Assembly (NCBI GenBank): GCA_964645795.1
Contig: CAZYCL010000006.1
Span: forward strand, 73,939 to 137,938
DNA length: 64,000 nt
Reading direction: 5' to 3'
From: an uncultured Planctomycetales bacterium
GTDB lineage: Bacteria; Omnitrophota; Gorgyraeia; Gygaellales; Profunditerraquicolaceae
How positions within the stretch are numbered: position 1 is the first letter of the stretch; the number at the start of each line of letters is the position of its first letter. The translations under genes and the position numbers were made by a program. Shown in pieces: positions 4,362 through 56,802 of the stretch. The notes beneath the pieces are model-generated. The model had not been told where the DNA came from. It saw only the letters and a program-made list of their open reading frames with translations, and did not search any database.

Positions 4362-4434
4362 GCCGATGTAGCTCAGCTGGTAGAGCAATTGTTTTGTAAA
4401 CAATGGGTCGGGGGTTCGATTCCCTCCATCGGCT
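4362..4434 (+). tRNA. tRNA-Thr (anticodon TGT)
   Basis: A manual cloverleaf fold: acceptor GCCGATG/CATCGGC, D-arm GCTCAGCTGGTAGAGC, anticodon loop TTTGTAA, T-arm GGGGGTTCGATTCCCTC. No CCA is encoded. Confidence 0.8.
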
Positions 4435-4612: not shown

Positions 4613-4695
4613 GGGTAGGTACCCAAGTGGCCAAAGGGGGCAGACTGTAAATCTGCTGCACTAGTGCTTCAGAGGTTCGAATCCTCTCCTGCCCA
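4613..4695 (+). tRNA. tRNA-Tyr (anticodon GTA) with a long variable arm
   Basis: Acceptor GGGTAGG/CCTGCCC, anticodon stem-loop CAGACTGTAAATCTG, long variable arm, T-arm AGGTTCGAATCCT. Confidence 0.85.
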
Positions 4696-5093: not shown

Positions 5094-5167
5094 GCGGGAG
5101 TAGTTCAGTGGTAGAACAATAGCCTTCCAAGCTATATATGAGGGTTCGATTCCCTTCTCCCGCTCCA
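5094..5167 (+). tRNA. tRNA-Gly (anticodon TCC), CCA encoded
   Basis: Acceptor GCGGGAG/CTCCCGC, D-arm GTTCAGTGGTAGAAC, anticodon loop CTTCCAA, T-arm GAGGGTTCGATTCCCTT, 3' TCCA. Confidence 0.85.
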
Positions 5168-7571: not shown

Positions 7572-7620
7572 GCGCACCTGGCGCTGATAGGTATTGCGCC
7601 AGTGCGCGCTAGGTAGCGCG
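7572..7620 (+). repeat. Family U element, copy 2, ending at nt +2 of tRNA-Pro
   Basis: Read directly from the sequence. Confidence 0.7.
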
Positions 7621-7693
7621 GGGGATGGCTCAGCTTGGCTAGAGCGCTTGAATGGGGTTCAAGAGGTCGAGAGTTCAAATCTCTCTCCCCCGA
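7619..7693 (+). tRNA. tRNA-Pro (anticodon GGG), with a C1-G72 pair
   Basis: Acceptor CGGGGGA/TCCCCCG, D-arm GCTCAGCTTGGCTAGAGC, anticodon stem-loop CTTGAATGGGGTTCAAG, T-arm GAGAGTTCAAATCTCTC, discriminator A. Confidence 0.75.
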
Positions 7694-27514: not shown

Positions 27515-27556
27515 TTGGGGACGGTTCCGGGGACAGGTCCCAGAACCGTCCCCAAA
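27515..27556. repeat. 41-nt palindrome TTGGGGACGGTTCCGGGGAC-AGGTCCCAGAACCGTCCCCAA (family P), copy 1
   Basis: Read directly. It lies 20 nt upstream of the groES -35. Confidence 0.8.
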
Positions 27557-49306: not shown

Positions 49307-49347
49307 TTGGGGACGGTTCTGGGGACAGGTCCCAGAACCGTCCCCAA
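49307..49347. repeat. 41-nt palindrome TTGGGGACGGTTCTGGGGAC-AGGTCCCAGAACCGTCCCCAA (family P), copy 2
   Basis: Read directly, between recO and panE. Confidence 0.85.
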
Positions 49348-51155: not shown

Positions 51156-52865
51156 ATGGTAAACGCAGAAGTCGCCCGGATCTTCCGTTCCATAGCGCAG
51201 ATACTTCAAATTAAGGATGACAACCGCTTCCGCATCGCCGCCTACGAACGAGCCGCGCAGAACATCGAATCTCTCTCCGAGCCGCTGGAAACCATAAAAG
51301 ACGAGAACAGGCTGGGCGATATCCCGGGCATAGGCAAGGACCTCTCTTCCAAGATCTCCGAATTTATCGATTCCGGCAGCATCCGTTACTACGACGAGCT
51401 AAAACTTACCATACCTGCCGGATTGCTTGACCTGCTGGAGGTTTCCTCGATAGGCCCAAAGACCGCAAAGCTCCTTTTTGAAAAACTGGGCATCGGGGAT
51501 GTCCCGGGGCTTGAAAAGGCCATTAAATCAGGAAAGCTCAAAGGCCTGCCGGGGATAAAGCAAAAGTCCATAGAGAATATGCTTAAAGGCATAGAGCTTT
51601 ATTTCAGGCGCAGGCAGAGGATGACCCTGGCGCAGGCAGAGGAGGTTGCGGCGGAGTTTATTTCAAGGCTTTCCCGCTGCGGCGGCGTAAAACAGATCTG
51701 CGTTGCGGGAAGCTTGCGGCGCCGTACCGAGACCGTAGGCGATATAGATATACTTGTTGCTTCAGGCCATCCCGCTAAAGTCATCGATGCTTTTGTCAGG
51801 ATCGGCCAGGTAAAGGATATTCTGGCAAAAGGGAGCACAAAGGCTTCGGTGCGCACAAAAGACGGCGTGCAGCTGGACTGCCGCGTAGTCGGGAAATCGA
51901 TGTTTGGCGCGGCGCTCCTTTACTTTACCGGTTCCAAGCTTTTTAACATAAGGCTGCGCAAGCTCTCCCTAAGCCGGGGCTGCAAGCTCAACGAGTACGG
52001 TATCTTTAAGGGCAATAAGCTGCTTGCTTCTAAGACGGAAGAACAGATGTTGAAAGCCCTTAAGTTGCAGTATATCGAGCCGGAGTTAAGGGAGGATAAC
52101 GGCGAGATAGAGCTGGCTAAAAAAGGGCTGCTGCCCAAGCTTATTGAATCAAAGGACATAAAAGGCGACCTGCATGTTCATTCCGTCTGGTCCGACGGCT
52201 CCAACACCGTAGAAGAGCTGGCAGGCGGTGCGCGCAGGTTCGGTTACTCTTATATTGCCGTAACCGACCATTCTCAAAGCTTAAGGATCGCCAATGGGCT
52301 AAGCGTCCAGGACCTGGAAAATAAGCGCAAAGAGATTGAAGGGCTCAATAAGAGGCTAAAAGGGATCAGGGTGCTTTATGGTACCGAGGCGGACATCGAC
52401 CCCGAAGGGAATATTGATTACGATGACGGGGTCTTAAGGGATTTTGATATTGTCATCGCGGCCATCCACTCCGGTTTCAAGCAGGATAGGGGCAAGCTTA
52501 CCAGGCGCATCATTGAGGCCTGCAAAAATAAATACGTGCATATCATCGCCCATCCCACGGGCAGGCTCTGGGGGGTAAGGGATTCTTATGAGTTGGATTT
52601 CAGGGAAGTTTTAAAAGCCGCCAGCGACACTAATACCGCCCTTGAGATCAATTCTTTTCCCAGCCGCCTGGACCTCAATGACCTGCACAGCCGCCAGGCA
52701 AAGCAGGCGGGGGTAAGGCTGGCAATAAATACGGATTCCCACAGCGTTGACCAGTTACCCGGGATAAGGTTCGGCATATCAGTTGCCCGCCGCGGATGGG
52801 TCGAAGCATCGGGTGTCATCAATACTCTTTCCTGCGACCAACTGCTAAAAATAATCAAAAAGTAG
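51156..52865 (+). CDS. polX: DNA polymerase/3'-5' exonuclease PolX (family X polymerase plus PHP domain)
   Basis: HhH/pol-beta-like N-terminus (GIGKDLSSKI), nucleotidyltransferase GSLRRR...GDIDIL, and the C-terminal PHP motifs (HVHSVWSDG). Confidence 0.85.
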   Translation: MVNAEVARIFRSIAQILQIKDDNRFRIAAYERAAQNIESLSEPLETIKDENRLGDIPGIGKDLSSKISEFIDSGSIRYYDELKLTIPAGLLDLLEVSSIGPKTAKLLFEKLGIGDVPGLEKAIKSGKLKGLPGIKQKSIENMLKGIELYFRRRQRMTLAQAEEVAAEFISRLSRCGGVKQICVAGSLRRRTETVGDIDILVASGHPAKVIDAFVRIGQVKDILAKGSTKASVRTKDGVQLDCRVVGKSMFGAALLYFTGSKLFNIRLRKLSLSRGCKLNEYGIFKGNKLLASKTEEQMLKALKLQYIEPELREDNGEIELAKKGLLPKLIESKDIKGDLHVHSVWSDGSNTVEELAGGARRFGYSYIAVTDHSQSLRIANGLSVQDLENKRKEIEGLNKRLKGIRVLYGTEADIDPEGNIDYDDGVLRDFDIVIAAIHSGFKQDRGKLTRRIIEACKNKYVHIIAHPTGRLWGVRDSYELDFREVLKAASDTNTALEINSFPSRLDLNDLHSRQAKQAGVRLAINTDSHSVDQLPGIRFGISVARRGWVEASGVINTLSCDQLLKIIKK

Positions 52866-52917
52866 TGGGGACGGTTCTGGGGACGGTTCTGGGACCTGTC
52901 CCCAGAACCGTCCCCAA
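52866..52917. repeat. Family P palindrome, copy 3, with an internal duplication of GGGGACGGTTCT
   Basis: Read directly, between polX and apbE. Confidence 0.85.
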
Positions 52918-52924
52918 ATAAGAT

Positions 52925-53872
52925 ATGAAGTCGATATATATTATTTGCATGGTTATGCTCTTGGGCTGCCAGCACCAGGCTCATTTGTACCGCGATAACC
53001 GTGTCTTGATGGGAACGGTCGTAGAGGTCGTTACGCCTTATCCGGAGGCGGCAAATATTGTTTTCGATGAGATCCGTAGGCTGGAGAGCCTATTTGATAT
53101 TCACCGGCCGTCAAGCGAGGTATCGCGCCTGAACAGGTTCGGGCGCCTTGAGAATGCCAAAGCCGATACCGTGGATATCATAAAGCAGGCAAAGGAGTTT
53201 TACGCTATAAGCGCGGGCGCATTTGACGTGACCAGCGCCAGGCTTAGCGCTTTATGGAGGCGTTATGCAGGCGTATCGAGGCTGCCTTCAAAAGCCAGGA
53301 TCAGCGAGCAGATGCGCTTTACCGGCAGCGATAAAATCTTATTGAATGAGGACGATTATGTGATAGAATTTAAAGCTCCCGGAGTCGAGATTGATTTAGG
53401 GGCCATCGCCAAAGGTTGGGCACTTGACCGCGCCGCGCAAAGGCTAAAGAATCAAGGCATTACCGACTGCCTTATAAACGCAGGCGGACAGGTATATGCG
53501 CTGGGCAAATGCCGGGGACAGCCCTGGAAGGTGGGAATGCTTGATTTTCAAGCTGTCGGTGAGTCGATCATTATAGACCTGCAAGATGCCTCTGCTTCTA
53601 CGAGCGGAGATTCCGAACGGTCTTTTGTGATAAACGGGGTGGCCTATTCTCATATATTGGACCCCCGCACAGGCTACCCGGCAAAAGCCGGGTTATCCAG
53701 CGTTACTGTTGTCGCTGCCAGCGCTGCAGCAGCTGATGCCCTGTCTACAATAGTATTCATTCTTGGTATAGATGAGGGCCGCCGGATCGTCGAAAAATTC
53801 CCTGGTGCAAGAATAGCGCATTTTACTAAGCAGGCAGGCGATGGCAGATTGCCAGAGAAACAAAAGTTTTAA
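52925..53872 (+). CDS. apbE: FAD:protein FMN transferase (ApbE family) lipoprotein
   Basis: A lipobox LLGC, the RVLMGTVVEV motif, and the ApbE motifs. Confidence 0.8.
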   Translation: MKSIYIICMVMLLGCQHQAHLYRDNRVLMGTVVEVVTPYPEAANIVFDEIRRLESLFDIHRPSSEVSRLNRFGRLENAKADTVDIIKQAKEFYAISAGAFDVTSARLSALWRRYAGVSRLPSKARISEQMRFTGSDKILLNEDDYVIEFKAPGVEIDLGAIAKGWALDRAAQRLKNQGITDCLINAGGQVYALGKCRGQPWKVGMLDFQAVGESIIIDLQDASASTSGDSERSFVINGVAYSHILDPRTGYPAKAGLSSVTVVAASAAAADALSTIVFILGIDEGRRIVEKFPGARIAHFTKQAGDGRLPEKQKF

Positions 53873-54242
53873 AAGCGTAGTCTGTATCGCTAGCAGCGAT
53901 AGCGCAGCCAAGCAGCTTATCGGTGCCGCCAGGTCGTATAAAAGCTGCGGCAGCCGCACTATAATTATACTGGGCGGCGAGCTTAGCCGCATACAAGCTT
54001 TAGGGAAGTCGCTGTCACGGGTATCCGATGAACAGTTCTACGCCGCCAGCAACCAAGATTTTTCCAGCCGTTTAGGCGTAGTAGAGCTGCTCGGCGATCT
54101 TTTTGACTGCATTGAGAAGTCAACTCACACCCAGTATCCCGAGCTCATCCACGCTTTTGTCCCGGACGATATTGCCGGGCAGATCCTGCGGGTGGCCGAA
54201 GGCGTGAACGTAAAGACAATCATAGAACGGATAGAAGAATGA
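53841..54242 (+). CDS. Hypothetical protein
   Basis: An ORF only. It overlaps the apbE 3' end and the next gene's start. Confidence 0.3.
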   Translation: MADCQRNKSFKSVVCIASSDSAAKQLIGAARSYKSCGSRTIIILGGELSRIQALGKSLSRVSDEQFYAASNQDFSSRLGVVELLGDLFDCIEKSTHTQYPELIHAFVPDDIAGQILRVAEGVNVKTIIERIEE

Positions 54243-55567
54243 ATTATTCAACTAAGCCGATGTTCGTCTATTTCTCCAGGCTTTTGGATAAGCCCGTGGT
54301 AGACAGGAGCGGGTCGTTGATCGCAGAGGTCTATGATATCGTGGTCAGGCCTTCCGAAGTTTATCCTCAATCATCGCACCTTATCGTGCGCAAAGGCTTC
54401 CCCAACCGTAAATTCGCCATTATCGGCTGGGAAGACGTCTTGGAGGTTGATGATGACGAGAACGCCGTGCTTAAGATAGAAGAGGACAAGATTACCTGGC
54501 GCGAAAAGCACAATAATAAGGAAGAGCTGACGCTTCGCCGTGACGTGCTTGACCAGCAGGTCGTGGATACCTACAACCACAAGGTCATCCGGGTTAACGA
54601 CATTCATTTATTGCGCGTTGACAATTCGTTCATGATCGCCCATGTCGACATCAGCATGAGGGGCCTCTTTAGAAGGCTGGGTTACGAGAGGTTTATCGAC
54701 GGGTTGGTGAAGTTTTTCAACAAGGAAGCCCATTACCTGAAAAAGGAGCCGCTTATCTCCTGGAAGTATATACAGCCGTTGTCAGTGAATCCCGTAAGTA
54801 AAACCATTAAGATAAACGTTCCCCACAAGCAGCTTGATAATATACCTGCCGCTGACCTCGGCGAGATATTCCTGGACCTGGCGCCCCAGGCCCAGATAAC
54901 CCTCTTTAAGTCATTGGACGGGATTGCCCGTGCCAAGGTATTCAGGCACGTAGACTTCAAGACCCAGAAAGCGCTGGCGGAGCAGCTTCCTCTAAAAGAT
55001 GCGGTTGAGGTCTTAAACAGCATTCCCTCCGATGATGCCACCGATTTCCTGGAAAAGCTGCCGAAGGACAAGACCGGGGATTACCTGGAGATCATGGAAA
55101 GCAGGCAGTCAAAGAAGCTTTCGCAGCTGTTAGGCTACTCCAGCGATTCCGCGGGCGGCCTGATGATAGCCGAGTACCTGGCCTTCTTTAAAGACTCAAG
55201 CGTTGAATCGGTCCTGCGCCAGATAAGACAGAAGCACTTTAAGGTTGAGCCCGCCCAGTTCGTATATATTATTGATGAGGCCGGGCGGCTGGTAGGCTCG
55301 ACTAATTTCCGAAGGCTCATCTCCTCGGATCCTCATGAGCTGCTCTCCAAAACCGCTTTTCCCAAGACCTACTTCGTGCATCTTGACTCAGGAGTCAAAG
55401 AGGTCGCTTACCTCATGGAAAAGTATAAGTACTATGCGATACCCGTCGTGGATAATGACAATATCCTTCAGGGGATCATAACCGTTGATGACGTCCTCAG
55501 CCAGCTTATTGCCCTGGCCTGGAGGCGCCTTAAGAAGATAAAAGCCAAGCCTACTCCCGCGCAATGA
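54239..55567 (+). CDS. Soluble MgtE-like regulatory protein (PRC-barrel-like N-terminus, MgtE_N domain, CBS pair) with no MgtE transmembrane domain
   Basis: The MgtE_N helical repeats (PAADLGEIFLDLAPQAQ...SIPSDDATDFLEKLP) and two CBS motifs are present. The protein ends after the CBS pair, and its stop overlaps the start of the NRAMP gene (ATGA). Confidence 0.7.
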   Translation: MNYSTKPMFVYFSRLLDKPVVDRSGSLIAEVYDIVVRPSEVYPQSSHLIVRKGFPNRKFAIIGWEDVLEVDDDENAVLKIEEDKITWREKHNNKEELTLRRDVLDQQVVDTYNHKVIRVNDIHLLRVDNSFMIAHVDISMRGLFRRLGYERFIDGLVKFFNKEAHYLKKEPLISWKYIQPLSVNPVSKTIKINVPHKQLDNIPAADLGEIFLDLAPQAQITLFKSLDGIARAKVFRHVDFKTQKALAEQLPLKDAVEVLNSIPSDDATDFLEKLPKDKTGDYLEIMESRQSKKLSQLLGYSSDSAGGLMIAEYLAFFKDSSVESVLRQIRQKHFKVEPAQFVYIIDEAGRLVGSTNFRRLISSDPHELLSKTAFPKTYFVHLDSGVKEVAYLMEKYKYYAIPVVDNDNILQGIITVDDVLSQLIALAWRRLKKIKAKPTPAQ

Positions 55568-56802
55568 CCAGAGTAAGAAAATTCTGGAAAGAGTTCCTTA
55601 TATTCCTGTCCATAATGGGGCCGGGTATAATTACCGCCAACGTCGATAACGACGCCGGCGGCATTACCACTTATTCGGTGGCCGGAGCGCACTTCGGCTA
55701 TTCGCTTATCTGGTCGTTTGTGCCGATCATCATCGTCTTGGTGATCATCCAGGAGATGTGCAGCCGCATGGCCGTGGTCACCGGCAAGGGGCTTGCCGAT
55801 CTTATCAGGGAGGAGTTCGGCGTAAAGGTGACTTTTTACGCGATGATCGTCCTGATATTCTCCAACCTCTTTAACACCATAGCGGAGTTTGCCGGCATTG
55901 CCGCCAGCGCCGAGTTGTTCGGCATGAGCAAATACGCGCTTGTCCCGGCCTGCGCGGTATTCATCTGGTGGCTTATAGTCAAAGGCACCTATAAGAGCGT
56001 GGAAAAGGTATTTCTTGTTGCCTGCCTGTTCTACGTTACCTATATCATATCGGGGTTTATTTCTGCGCCGGACTGGAAAGAGGTGGCCGAAAGCTCTATT
56101 AGCCCGAAGATCTATTTCGACAAGGCGTATCTGGTGATGCTTATGGGGGTTATCGGAACGACCATCGCTCCCTGGATGCAGTTCTACCAACAATCCTCCG
56201 TCGTGGAAAAAGGCATAAGCCTCAAGGATTATAAGTACAGCAAGTGGGACGTGATCGTCGGCGCATTCGTGGTCAATATCGTAGCGGTCTTTATCGTCAT
56301 CGTCTGCGCCAACACCCTTTTTAAGAACGGAGTGCGTATTGAAACCGCAAAAGATGCGGCCTTGGCCCTGAAGCCGCTGGCAGGCCATTATTGTTTTTAT
56401 CTTTTCGCATTCGGCCTTCTTAATGCCTCAATATTCTCCGCCTGTATCCTGCCGCTTTCCACCGCCTACTCGGTCTGCGAAGGAATGGGCTGGGAGGTGG
56501 GCGTCAACCGCCGTTTTCGCGAAGCCCCGCAGTTCTATTCGCTTTATACGGCGCTAATTGTAGTGGGTGCTGCGATCATACTTATCCCCGGGATTAAGCT
56601 TATTCCCATAATGCTCATCTCTCAGGCGGCAAACGGCATACTCCTGCCGTTCGTGCTTATCTTTATGCTGCTTTTGGTAAATAACAAACGCCTTATGGGC
56701 GCCCATACCAACTCCCGTCTTTATAACATTTTCACGGTCGCCACAGTCATCGCCATGATCGGGTTATCCATTGCCCTGTTCCTGGCGGCTTTTTACGGTT
56801 AG
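55564..56802 (+). CDS. NRAMP/SLC11-family transporter with a non-canonical metal site (candidate NRMT-like Mg2+ transporter)
   Basis: The NRAMP TM1 region is GPGIITANVDNDAGG, where DNDAGG replaces the canonical DPGN. The TM6 region is IAPWMQF, where the canonical MPH has Met changed to Ala. About 11 TM helices. Confidence 0.8.
   Translation: MTRVRKFWKEFLIFLSIMGPGIITANVDNDAGGITTYSVAGAHFGYSLIWSFVPIIIVLVIIQEMCSRMAVVTGKGLADLIREEFGVKVTFYAMIVLIFSNLFNTIAEFAGIAASAELFGMSKYALVPACAVFIWWLIVKGTYKSVEKVFLVACLFYVTYIISGFISAPDWKEVAESSISPKIYFDKAYLVMLMGVIGTTIAPWMQFYQQSSVVEKGISLKDYKYSKWDVIVGAFVVNIVAVFIVIVCANTLFKNGVRIETAKDAALALKPLAGHYCFYLFAFGLLNASIFSACILPLSTAYSVCEGMGWEVGVNRRFREAPQFYSLYTALIVVGAAIILIPGIKLIPIMLISQAANGILLPFVLIFMLLLVNNKRLMGAHTNSRLYNIFTVATVIAMIGLSIALFLAAFYG

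Follow-up and report, generated by a model that had tools for sequence, protein, structure and literature searches.

The window, a 64,000-nt stretch of DNA from an Omnitrophota bacterium, carries two adjoining genes on its plus strand, and their coordinates, orientation and overlap were exactly as an earlier sequence-only reading had given them. The upstream gene (54239 to 55567) encodes a 442-aa soluble MgtE-like sensor without a pore domain, and the downstream gene (55564 to 56802) encodes a 412-aa protein that is, by homology, an NRAMP-related Mg2+ transporter (NRMT). The two share a 4-nt ATGA stop/start overlap (55564 to 55567, plus strand) that can be read directly from the sequence. With ORFs called from the first start codon, 8 loci from genomes and 10 from metagenomes showed the same -4 overlap between sensor and NRMT genes. 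An identical four-gene arrangement was present in an independent read-set assembly, indicating that the locus is no assembly artefact. Searching the window for an M-box riboswitch (RF00380) gave no match, either at the gathering threshold or at E-values up to 10.

The sensor contains two PRC modules, an MgtE_N domain, a CBS pair and a basic C-terminal helix, all encoded on the plus strand. Its N-terminus has the PRC-barrel fold of PF05239: for residues 10-77 (54266 to 54469), the Pfam score was barely above threshold (21.9 against 21.2 bits), the AF2 pLDDT was about 82-94 in the full-length model, and every top Foldseek match was a PRC barrel (target TM-scores reaching 0.74). Residues ~97-175 (54527 to 54763; hhalign probability 88%, E=3e-6) make up another PRC repeat, diverged and followed by helices, which carries the family-wide motif LRRDxLDQQVVD...KVxRVNDxHL. 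Downstream lie the two cytosolic domains of the MgtE channel, namely the helical MgtE_N domain (residues 203-303, 54845 to 55147; PF03448, E=1.4e-19) and a CBS pair (residues ~310-415, 55166 to 55483). Alignment to 2yvy identified the last 27 residues (416-442, 55484 to 55564; …IALAWRRLKKIKAK…) as the equivalent of the MgtE plug helix. The HMM searches and this alignment thus confirmed the domain content proposed from the letters alone.

The same reading held that the protein stops where the MgtE pore would begin, and this was borne out. The alignment to Thermus thermophilus MgtE ended inside the plug helix at native residue ~268, and the sensor terminated 3 residues later. The mgtE model TIGR00400 covered only profile positions 18-255 of 450, with a score of 145 bits against a cut-off of 232.75, and Pfam detected no MgtE pore domain (PF01769) in the 442 residues. 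These results indicated that the sensor is a homologue of the MgtE cytosolic domain and not an MgtE channel.

We compared the metal ligands of T. thermophilus MgtE (TtMgtE) with the corresponding positions of the sensor. The Mg4 site is kept, with D265 of the MgtE_N domain at TtMgtE D91 and D418, in the first part of the C-terminal helix, at D247; the Mg6 ligand D95 is kept as D269, also in MgtE_N. The ligands of Mg2, Mg3, Mg5 and Mg7 are lost: R429 and R430 stand at E258 and D259 of the Mg2 and Mg3 sites, and E59, D226 and D250 are replaced by K233, K397 and S421. Among 63 sequences, comprising 62 diverse partners and the window's own sensor, Asp occupied the D91, D247 and D95 positions in 48, 47 and 60, respectively, and among 123 representatives in 107, 105 and 118. 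The comparative results therefore point to D265, D269 and D418 as the residues expected to sense Mg2+. At the acidic plug-helix positions of MgtE, free-standing sensors have Lys, Arg or a deletion. The window plug helix has a charge of +6, compared with -5 in TtMgtE and an average of -4.9 in pore-fused relatives. The basic tail is variable in length and missing in many partners. A role in ATP sensing, which had also been claimed, found no support in the binding-site residues. The ribose-binding Asp188 of MgtE is Arg359 in the window sensor and Asn203 is Phe374, while R358 is kept and Y170 and F227 remain aromatic as F341 and Y398; across sensors the ATP-site residues are poorly conserved, with Leu at the adenine-stacking Phe227 position in most partners.

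The downstream protein matched PF01566 over profile positions 1-357 of 357 (E=1.5e-103), which corresponds to an NRAMP/LeuT-type fold over the whole protein. Its best solved relative was EleNRMT of Eggerthella lenta (7QIA; E=4.9e-117, 394.6 bits, colinear over residues 8-405, global identity 46%), whereas canonical Nramp structures gave E = 4e-24 or weaker, other solved SLC11 proteins scored at most 88.7 bits, and the NRAT structure 8ont scored 36 bits. In helix 1, the sequence-only reading had proposed DNDAGG in place of the DPGN motif; the substitution stands, and the true equivalent is D30-A31-G32-G33 (55651 to 55662, plus strand), D28 and N29 being extra. In helix 6, its reading of APW for MPH was right: the motif T199-T-I-A202-P-W204 (56158 to 56175, plus strand) has Ala at the canonical Met position and, in addition, Trp at the first His position. 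The second His position, in helix 6b, is Q209 and hence not His either. D30, G33, T199, A202 and W204 correspond to EleNRMT D55, G58, T224, A227 and W229, and E108 in helix 3 and Q354 in helix 10 correspond to E133 and Q379. All seven equal the NRMT-defining residues and are near-invariant in 52 NRMTs linked to a partner, where helix 1 has the Asp in 51/52 and the Gly in 52/52, and helix 6 has Thr, Ala and Trp in 51/52, 48/52 and 52/52. The acidic loop 8-9, C-E306-x-x-G-x-E311, is invariant.

On this sequence evidence the transporter is a member of the NRMT clade, which is a characterised one, in agreement with its proposed placement on the Mg2+ branch. The alternative that it is an ordinary H+-coupled Mn2+/Fe2+ transporter of the MntH type with an incidental neighbour could appeal to its best NCBIfam match, which is by name an MntH subfamily model, yet the score of 138.8 bits fell far below the cut-off of 430. 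DAGG and TTIAPW stand in place of DPGN and (A)xxMPH, the E-values of canonical Nramp structures exceeded that of EleNRMT by at least 90 orders of magnitude, and the adjacency to the sensor is conserved. We therefore rejected this reading on motif and similarity tests and attach practically no credence to it.

The residues at the seven signature positions define Mg2+ selectivity in EleNRMT by mutagenesis and structure; EleNRMT transports Mg2+ and Mn2+, excludes Ca2+ and lacks H+ coupling (PMC8806188). Together with the genetics of the Clostridium acetobutylicum NrmT proteins, which rescued a Mg2+-transport-deficient strain without a partner and were thus sufficient for Mg2+ uptake (PMC4072509), this homology suggests that the window protein would carry Mg2+ without H+ coupling. 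We also weighed whether the pair could instead serve Mn2+ or another divalent ion, with the sensor answering to that ion. EleNRMT does carry Mn2+ too, the NRMT-type protein that lies beside an MgtE-like gene in A. capsulatum was apparently mainly a Mn2+ transporter (PMC4072509), and the window has no M-box. Against this, the window protein keeps the full EleNRMT signature, including T199, and the equivalent mutation T224A in EleNRMT abolished Mg2+ transport while retaining Mn2+ transport (PMC8806188). Moreover, homologous operons are under M-box riboswitches, and the conserved ligands of the sensor are Mg2+ sites of MgtE. A substrate other than Mg2+ therefore appears unlikely to us.

To determine how widely the two genes are linked, we surveyed 80 NRMT loci in genomes that span many phyla of bacteria and archaea; 76 of the loci were assessable. 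A sensor lay upstream in 66 of these: 61 had a full-length copy immediately upstream on the same strand, and 5 more had a partial or frameshifted one. It was immediately downstream in 1 locus and missing in 6. Conversely, 68 of 74 assessable free-standing sensors had an NRMT downstream, 64 within 400 nt and 4 farther away, while the other 6 had none within 1.9-4 kb downstream or elsewhere in the locus. About 8-10% of NRMTs, and likewise of sensors, are thus unlinked, and these exceptions showed no alternative conserved neighbour. The adjacency is therefore conserved across many phyla. An M-box preceded the sensor-NRMT pair in one locus (L058) and a lone NRMT in another (L050). Close relatives of EleNRMT (75% identity, human gut) also have a sensor gene upstream, and the adjoining sensors carry an extra C-terminal hydrophobic anchor.

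We found no sensor-NRMT fusion among the best 150 representatives. In contrast, 18 of 141 close representatives were proteins of ~600 aa in which the PRC-MgtE_N-CBS module is followed by a pore-sized C-terminal extension, with the MgtE pore PF01769 detected by Pfam in 3 of the 5 scanned. In these pore-fused proteins the plug helix is still acidic, with E255, E258 and D259 present in 17-18 of 18. These data bear on whether the sensor might be Mg2+-responsive yet act on some other target, for example through its PRC barrels, and be merely co-expressed with the NRMT. PRC barrels are protein-interaction modules in RimM, the reaction-centre H subunit and archaeal CdpB, and both the NRMT-less sensors and the absence of fusions would suit such a role. 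However, two-way linkage of ~90% in bacteria and archaea, with stop/start overlaps, is far above usual co-regulation, and the unlinked cases share no other neighbour. Sister proteins also have the same module covalently joined to a Mg2+ pore, indicating that its ancestral job is transporter control. We regard action elsewhere as very unlikely.

The pairing had been thought uncharacterised, but Shin et al. 2014 (PLoS Genet; PMC4072509) already described 'mgtE-nramp operons' and tested one pair. The authors found that most nrmT genes adjoin one encoding a homologue of the MgtE cytoplasmic domain, the same-strand arrangement found in the window, proposed cytoplasmic feedback regulation, and reported M-box riboswitches for nrmT loci. 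When the A. capsulatum pair was co-expressed, growth rescue was unaffected by the sensor, with a transporter of apparent Mn2+ preference. Having been described in 2014 and being widespread in bacteria and archaea, the pairing is real and not new; the locus represents the known 'MgtE-like sensor + nrmT' operon in an Omnitrophota genome and brings nothing categorically new. The literature searched gave no experiment on NRMT gating by an MgtE-like partner and nothing joining PRC-barrel with MgtE. What goes beyond the searchable literature is the tandem PRC barrel of the sensor, the fusion of the same module to a true MgtE pore, the retention of the Mg4 and Mg6 ligands with a plug helix turned basic in free-standing sensors, and the poor conservation of ATP-site residues.

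We observed the identities of the domains, the signature residues, the linkage of the genes, the conserved ligands and the inverted charge of the plug helix. From these we think it fairly probable that the NRMT is an uncoupled uniporter for Mg2+(/Mn2+) on which a cytosolic sensor of Mg2+ exerts feedback inhibition in trans; that the two proteins interact physically, which way the regulation runs and what the window protein carries are parts of this model that we infer. The NRMT, a LeuT-fold relative of SLC11 proteins, would use an enlarged site (Asp, Gly, Thr, Ala) to take largely hydrated Mg2+, and also Mn2+; by homology to EleNRMT, the ion would be driven by the membrane potential and carried independently of H+. 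Because such a uniporter would overload the cell, we propose that it needs feedback control. The translationally coupled sensor, with the MgtE cytosolic build behind two PRC barrels, would bind cytosolic Mg2+ at the interface of its N-domain and CBS pair, through Mg4 (D265, D418) and Mg6 (D269), and close up like the MgtE cytosolic domain. The closed sensor would then dock onto the NRMT from the cytoplasmic side and inhibit transport, with the basic C-terminal tail and the loop 8-9 glutamates E306 and E311 as the probable contact, and at low Mg2+ it would let go of the transporter.

It could also be argued that the sensor is a positive factor, an activator, assembly factor or metallochaperone that opens the NRMT or passes ions to it at low Mg2+. 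Shin et al. list 'metal chaperone activity' among their alternatives (PMC4072509), and strict operon linkage with translational coupling would also suit a stoichiometric subunit. In addition, the closing sites Mg2 and Mg3 in the plug helix are lost, so the closing logic of MgtE need not transfer. However, the C. acetobutylicum proteins rescued growth without a partner, co-expression did not improve the A. capsulatum rescue (PMC4072509), and EleNRMT alone transports in liposomes (PMC8806188), indicating that the partner is dispensable for activity. A positive role is thus improbable in our judgement. The sufficiency of NrmT for Mg2+ uptake fits a non-essential, probably negative, regulator, and the comparative results offer a reason why a growth-rescue assay would miss one.

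Several observations count against feedback inhibition in trans: the absence of fusions, the lost ligands, the variable basic tail, the absence of an M-box in the window, the unlinked ~8-10%, the null A. capsulatum co-expression and the characterisation of EleNRMT without a partner. A separate observation, the hydrophobic anchor of the gut sensors, favours sensor action close to the membrane. As a broader and more tentative idea, which we hold possible though somewhat doubtful, PRC-PRC-MgtE_N-CBS may be a portable Mg2+-sensing gate, acting in cis on MgtE pores and, as a free-standing subunit that has either a plug helix turned basic or an anchor in the membrane, in trans on the LeuT-type NRMT, whose fold is unrelated, with docking at E306 and E311 of loop 8-9. 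If true, a carrier would have gained its detachable inhibitor from the regulatory domain of a channel. NRMTs are one of few prokaryotic Mg2+ uptake routes and are uncoupled uniporters, and the role of the partner may bear on how overload with Mg2+ or Mn2+ is avoided. EleNRMT is structurally tractable and its close relatives have the upstream gene, making it a practical starting system.

Among known systems, the closest match for the transporter comes from another phylum, since Eggerthella lenta belongs to the Actinomycetota and the window organism to the Omnitrophota. EleNRMT (PDB 7QIA/7QIC; Ramanadane et al. 2022, eLife, PMC8806188) is of the same clade, with the same D, G, T, A, W and Q and the same helix-3 Glu. 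It differs in helix 6b, where the second His position is Asn rather than Gln, and in having G53 where the window protein has D28, and it was characterised as an isolated monomer with no partner mentioned, whereas the window NRMT is paired with a sensor gene. The operons of Shin et al. (Ca_c0685 operon; ACP2976-ACP2977; PMC4072509) have the same architecture, with a sensor homologue directly upstream of the NRMT and the same proposed role in cytoplasmic feedback regulation. In contrast to a subset of nrmT operons, the window locus has no M-box, and its sensor is one gene where that of C. acetobutylicum is divided between two. The partner is described there as a 'small' MgtE N-terminal homologue, and the passages compared do not mention pore-fused sisters, the basic plug-helix replacement or tandem PRC barrels.

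The TtMgtE cytosolic domain (2YVY/2YVX/2ZY9) has the Mg4 (D91/D247) and Mg6 (D95) ligands in common with the window sensor, which differs in having no transmembrane pore, ~190 extra N-terminal residues that form the two PRC barrels, a basic instead of an acidic plug helix, none of the Mg2, Mg3, Mg5 and Mg7 ligands, and neither the D188 nor the N203 contact. 'Long' MgtE channels of the form PRC-MgtE_N-CBS-PF01769 (for example P0277, P0271, P0348; L110:1365-3236) match the sensor module over its full length, with about 29-34% identity, but have their own MgtE pore and retain the acidic plug helix, and the one at L110 has no adjoining NRMT. More distantly, the KtrA/TrkA RCK rings on KtrB/TrkH are separately encoded cytosolic regulators of cation transporters, and in CorB/CorC/CNNM a fused CBS pair acts on its transporter in cis. 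Both resemble the window pair by analogy, sharing only the concept of a ligand-sensing cytosolic module on a cation transporter, and the folds and ligands of KtrA/TrkA are unrelated to those of the window sensor.

The sensor gene (54239..55567, +, 442 aa) and the gene of the NRAMP-related Mg2+ transporter, or NRMT (55564..56802, +, 412 aa), lie exactly where the sequence-only reading had placed them, and the translational coupling it proposed can be read in the sequence, the sensor stop and the NRMT start sharing an ATGA at 55564-55567. Pfam searches bore out the expected sensor domains, detecting MgtE_N (residues 203-303, E=1.4e-19), CBS (residues 379-423, E=3.4e-13) and a marginal PRC barrel (residues 10-77, 21.9 bits vs 21.2 cut-off). 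The NCBIfam mgtE equivalog aligned with the sensor over profile positions 18-255 of 450 only, scoring below its cut-off. The nearest solved structure was the cytosolic domain of T. thermophilus MgtE (TtMgtE; 2yvy, E=3e-31), and this alignment stops within the plug helix, the pore-contacting element of MgtE, 3 residues short of the sensor C-terminus, indicating that the sensor does end where the pore would start. In an AF2 model of the full-length sensor (pLDDT 75), beta modules at residues 9-78 and 99-137, the second extended by helices to ~168, are joined by a disordered linker to the MgtE_N helical repeat, after which come the whole CBS pair (residues 314-415) and a long C-terminal helix. 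Modelling residues 1-195 separately with AF2 gave low quality (pLDDT 57, <50 in the second module), and this model was used for the first PRC barrel only.

Nramp PF01566 covered the transporter end to end (E=1.5e-103), and by far its closest solved structure was the Eggerthella lenta NRMT (EleNRMT; 7qia, E=4.9e-117), while no canonical Nramp/MntH structure matched better than 4e-24, nor did NRAT, a plant Al3+ transporter. The site residues that characterise EleNRMT are D55, G58 (for Asn of DPGN), T224 (for Ala), A227 (for Met), E133 and Q379 (Ramanadane et al. 2022, PMC8806188), and its two helix-6b histidines are replaced by Trp and Asn (PMC8806188). The window transporter carries D30, G33, T199, A202, E108 and Q354 as equivalents, along with W204 and, at the second His position, Q209. 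DPGN is thus replaced in TM1 as had been claimed, the equivalent motif being DAGG and not DNDAGG. NRMT site residues were present in 48-52 of 52 distinct NRMTs collected via the partner gene, and hence without selection on NRMT motifs. With EleNRMT as top match and the defining residues kept, the motif-based assignment to the NRMTs held, and a canonical MntH identity was ruled out by motifs and scores. A Kyte-Doolittle profile, a crude method, gave nine clear peaks plus the broken helices TM1 and TM6, which is compatible with 11 TMs but no independent proof of them. Taken together, the identity of both genes, an MgtE-type sensor and an NRMT, is virtually certain. Regarding the ion, EleNRMT transports Mg2+ and Mn2+ and excludes Ca2+, with no H+ coupling (PMC8806188). 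A rival explanation holds that Mn2+ is the true substrate, and bearing on it is the apparent Mn2+ preference described in PMC4072509 for the transporter of the A. capsulatum pair ACP2976/ACP2977.

The nearest homologues of sensor and NRMT were both labelled Candidatus Omnitrophota by their sources, and each protein had hundreds of near-full-length relatives. To survey linkage, we used an NRMT alignment to scan a single genome of each species, yielding 80 loci that span Omnitrophota, Zixibacteria, Syntrophales, Aminicenantes, Nitrospirota, Acidobacteriota, Firmicutes, methanogens and Woesearchaeota. Six-frame ORFs around them were then compared with a family HMM and the window proteins. A full-length sensor lay directly upstream on the same strand in 61 of these loci, and each of the 61 matched query residues ~7-430 as a single HMMER domain, so that the PRC region is part of the family. 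The sensor was partial or frameshifted upstream in five further loci, directly downstream in one (L045), present as partial copies elsewhere at contig edges in two, and absent from six whose flank measures 1.3 kb or more; four loci were not assessable. One locus, L048, was rejected as sensor-bearing, its match being generic, CBS-only and no partner. In the reverse direction, metagenome contigs were scanned with sensor homologues (an 11-sequence partner alignment), which also returned one pore-fused long form (L110). An NRMT lay at most 400 nt downstream of 64 of the 74 assessable free-standing sensors and 0.4-3.1 kb downstream of four more. ATGA-type overlaps occurred in at least 18 loci. These surveys indicated that the proposed adjacency is conserved in both directions. 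It is this adjacency that the rival idea of a sensor with an unrelated target has to be weighed against; the remaining six sensors, which had no NRMT and all belong to one high-GC subclade, had no recognisable alternative transporter nearby. Sensor-NRMT fusions (~850 aa), which would be Rosetta-stone evidence, were not found among the top 150 representatives, and long 'NRMT' ORFs in L065, L069, L071 and L125 were discarded as out-of-frame open-frame extensions in high-GC DNA.

Several loci departed from the usual arrangement. At L045:5884-8456 the order is reversed, NRMT then full-length sensor with a 4-nt overlap, an order shared by no other of the 80 genome loci. In a Spirochaetota MAG contig (L003:4444-5998) the sensor gene preceding the NRMT is split over three frames, either because it is a pseudogene or because of an indel error in long-read assembly. 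At L147:2952-5963 sensor and NRMT are ~3 kb apart, and the sequence between them resembles an arsenic-resistance cluster, with ArsR-, ArsM-, ArsC- and aquaporin-like N-termini as judged by eye.

In the window, the gene upstream of the pair (52925-53872) belongs to the ApbE family of FAD:protein FMN transferases and encodes a lipoprotein-like N-terminus. Such a gene is also immediately upstream of the pair in six related, Omnitrophota-like loci (L081, L082, L083, L085, L086 and L088), making apbE-sensor-NRMT a lineage-level trio; no functional link of apbE to the pair was evident. A 133-aa ORF (53841-54242) between apbE and the sensor, overlapping both (ATGA at 54239), had no Pfam match. Its resemblance to a PyrK-like FAD/NAD/Fe-S protein, of which L001:1-831 holds an intact copy, was confined to the NAD-binding part of that protein (residues 98-216). 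This ORF, probably a gene remnant, is missing in the six related loci, where apbE directly adjoins the sensor, and recurs in L161, which was assembled independently from the same organism. Four tRNA genes on the + strand (4362-4434, 4613-4695, 5094-5164 and 7619-7693; Rfam) are unrelated to the pair.

NrmT was discovered downstream of M-box riboswitches by Shin et al. (2014, PLoS Genet, PMC4072509). We found an M-box (RF00380) upstream of a lone NRMT in Peptococcaceae (L050:5554-5720, 137 bits) and another upstream of a sensor-NRMT pair in Firmicutes (L058:4438-4608, 133 bits). Neither an M-box nor any other riboswitch was detected across the whole window at the Rfam gathering threshold, and over 52500-55000 no riboswitch appeared at E up to 10, where only spurious miRNA models matched a palindromic hairpin. 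The source of those matches is a REP-like palindromic element (GGGGACGGTTCTGGG plus its inverted copy) occupying three intergenic sites, 27517-27553, 49309-49345 and 52867-52915, with seven matches vs 0.15 expected. The third copy (52866-52916), in which one arm is duplicated, sits between the stop of the upstream gene (52865) and the start of apbE (52925) and has a folding energy of -50 kcal/mol (z=-8.9). A promoter/terminator consensus scan of 49-59 kb gave counts that did not differ from shuffles and was uninformative.

In TtMgtE, Mg2+ is liganded by E258 (Mg2), D259 (Mg3), D91/D247 (Mg4), D226/D250 (Mg5), D95 (Mg6) and E59 (Mg7), and ATP is contacted by Y170, R187, D188, N203 and F227 (Maruyama et al. 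2018; Tomita et al. 2017). We mapped these ligands onto two sets, 63 sensors (that of the window and 62 from diverse partners) and 141 representatives. Mg4 is kept in the window as D265/D418 (Asp in ~75-87% of the family) and Mg6 as D269 (Asp in ~95%). Mg7, acidic in most partners, is lost to K233, and Mg5, only partly kept in the family, to K397/S421. At the Mg2/Mg3 positions the window has R429/R430, and free-standing sensors have Lys/Arg or a deletion. Conservation of the ATP site is poor, with R359 for D188 and F374 for N203 in the window and Leu at the F227 position in most partners, and the earlier suggestion that the partner senses ATP is unsupported by such poorly conserved residues.

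Searching 1.84 billion cluster representatives exhaustively with the sensor returned 363 relatives at E<1e-30, and 18 of the 141 near-full-length top relatives were long forms of 593-656 aa. This subfamily of ~600 aa comprises L110:1365-3236 and the representatives P0271, P0277, P0286, P0295, P0303, P0313-P0316, P0318, P0342, P0343, P0347-P0349, P0352, P0361 and P0376. Scanning five long forms with Pfam revealed PRC, MgtE_N and CBS in all five and the MgtE pore (PF01769) in three (P0271, P0277 and P0348). Among pore-bearing proteins, these MgtE channels with an N-terminal PRC extension are most closely related to the free-standing sensor, and no mention of PRC barrels together with MgtE was found in the searchable literature. 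Since the same module occurs both fused in cis to an MgtE pore and as a free-standing protein beside an NRMT, the 'modular' idea is sound. E255, E258 and D259 are retained in 17-18 of the 18 long forms, and the net charge of the plug region is -4.9 in long forms, +0.4 on average in 123 short forms and +6 in the window sensor. Judging from these alignments, the pore-contacting element of MgtE is remodelled in free-standing sensors. In human-gut metagenome loci (L113, L114 and L116-L119), whose NRMT is 75% identical to EleNRMT, the plug region is acidic and the sensor (L113:4004-5353 and its counterparts) is extended by 37 residues at its C-terminus, where a hydrophobic segment (FAITLAVFIVLMIPYTFFVL) apparently forms a single membrane anchor.

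The free-standing sensor combines a plug helix of inverted charge with conserved N-domain/CBS Mg2+ ligands, and the cytoplasmic loops of the NRMT hold invariant acidic residues, at E306 and E311 in loop 8-9 and in the V-E-K-G motif of loop 6-7. In MgtE, Mg2+ binding makes the cytosolic domain close, which shuts the pore. By our proposal, cytosolic Mg2+ would be bound by the sensor at Mg4/Mg6-type sites, the sensor would compact, and the compacted form would inhibit the NRMT from the cytoplasmic side, probably via the sensor C-terminal tail. We infer, with somewhat better than even confidence, that the NRMT is under feedback inhibition by the Mg2+-binding sensor. The published activity of NrmT without a partner fits an inhibitor. 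For the MgtE-like neighbour, PMC4072509 speculates on cytoplasmic feedback regulation or chaperone activity, and the sensor as activator or chaperone is a rival explanation. The same paper reports that rescue by the ACP2976/ACP2977 pair was no better on co-expression; a growth-rescue assay is blind to a negative regulator, which would account for this under feedback inhibition.

The novelty that had been claimed for the pairing falls to the same 2014 paper, which saw a gene for an MgtE cytoplasmic-domain homologue next to the majority of nrmT genes and describes 'mgtE-nramp operons' in Fig. S5. No later work on the MgtE-like partner was found in the searchable literature, and the partner gene or protein goes unmentioned in the EleNRMT paper (PMC8806188). 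The locus is an Omnitrophota example of the already known sensor-nrmT pairing. Tandem PRC barrels, pore-fused sister proteins, selective retention of Mg4/Mg6 ligands and basic replacement of the plug were not met in the searchable literature, and these four comparative features, although incremental, offer concrete handles on the question of the partner's role that dates from 2014.
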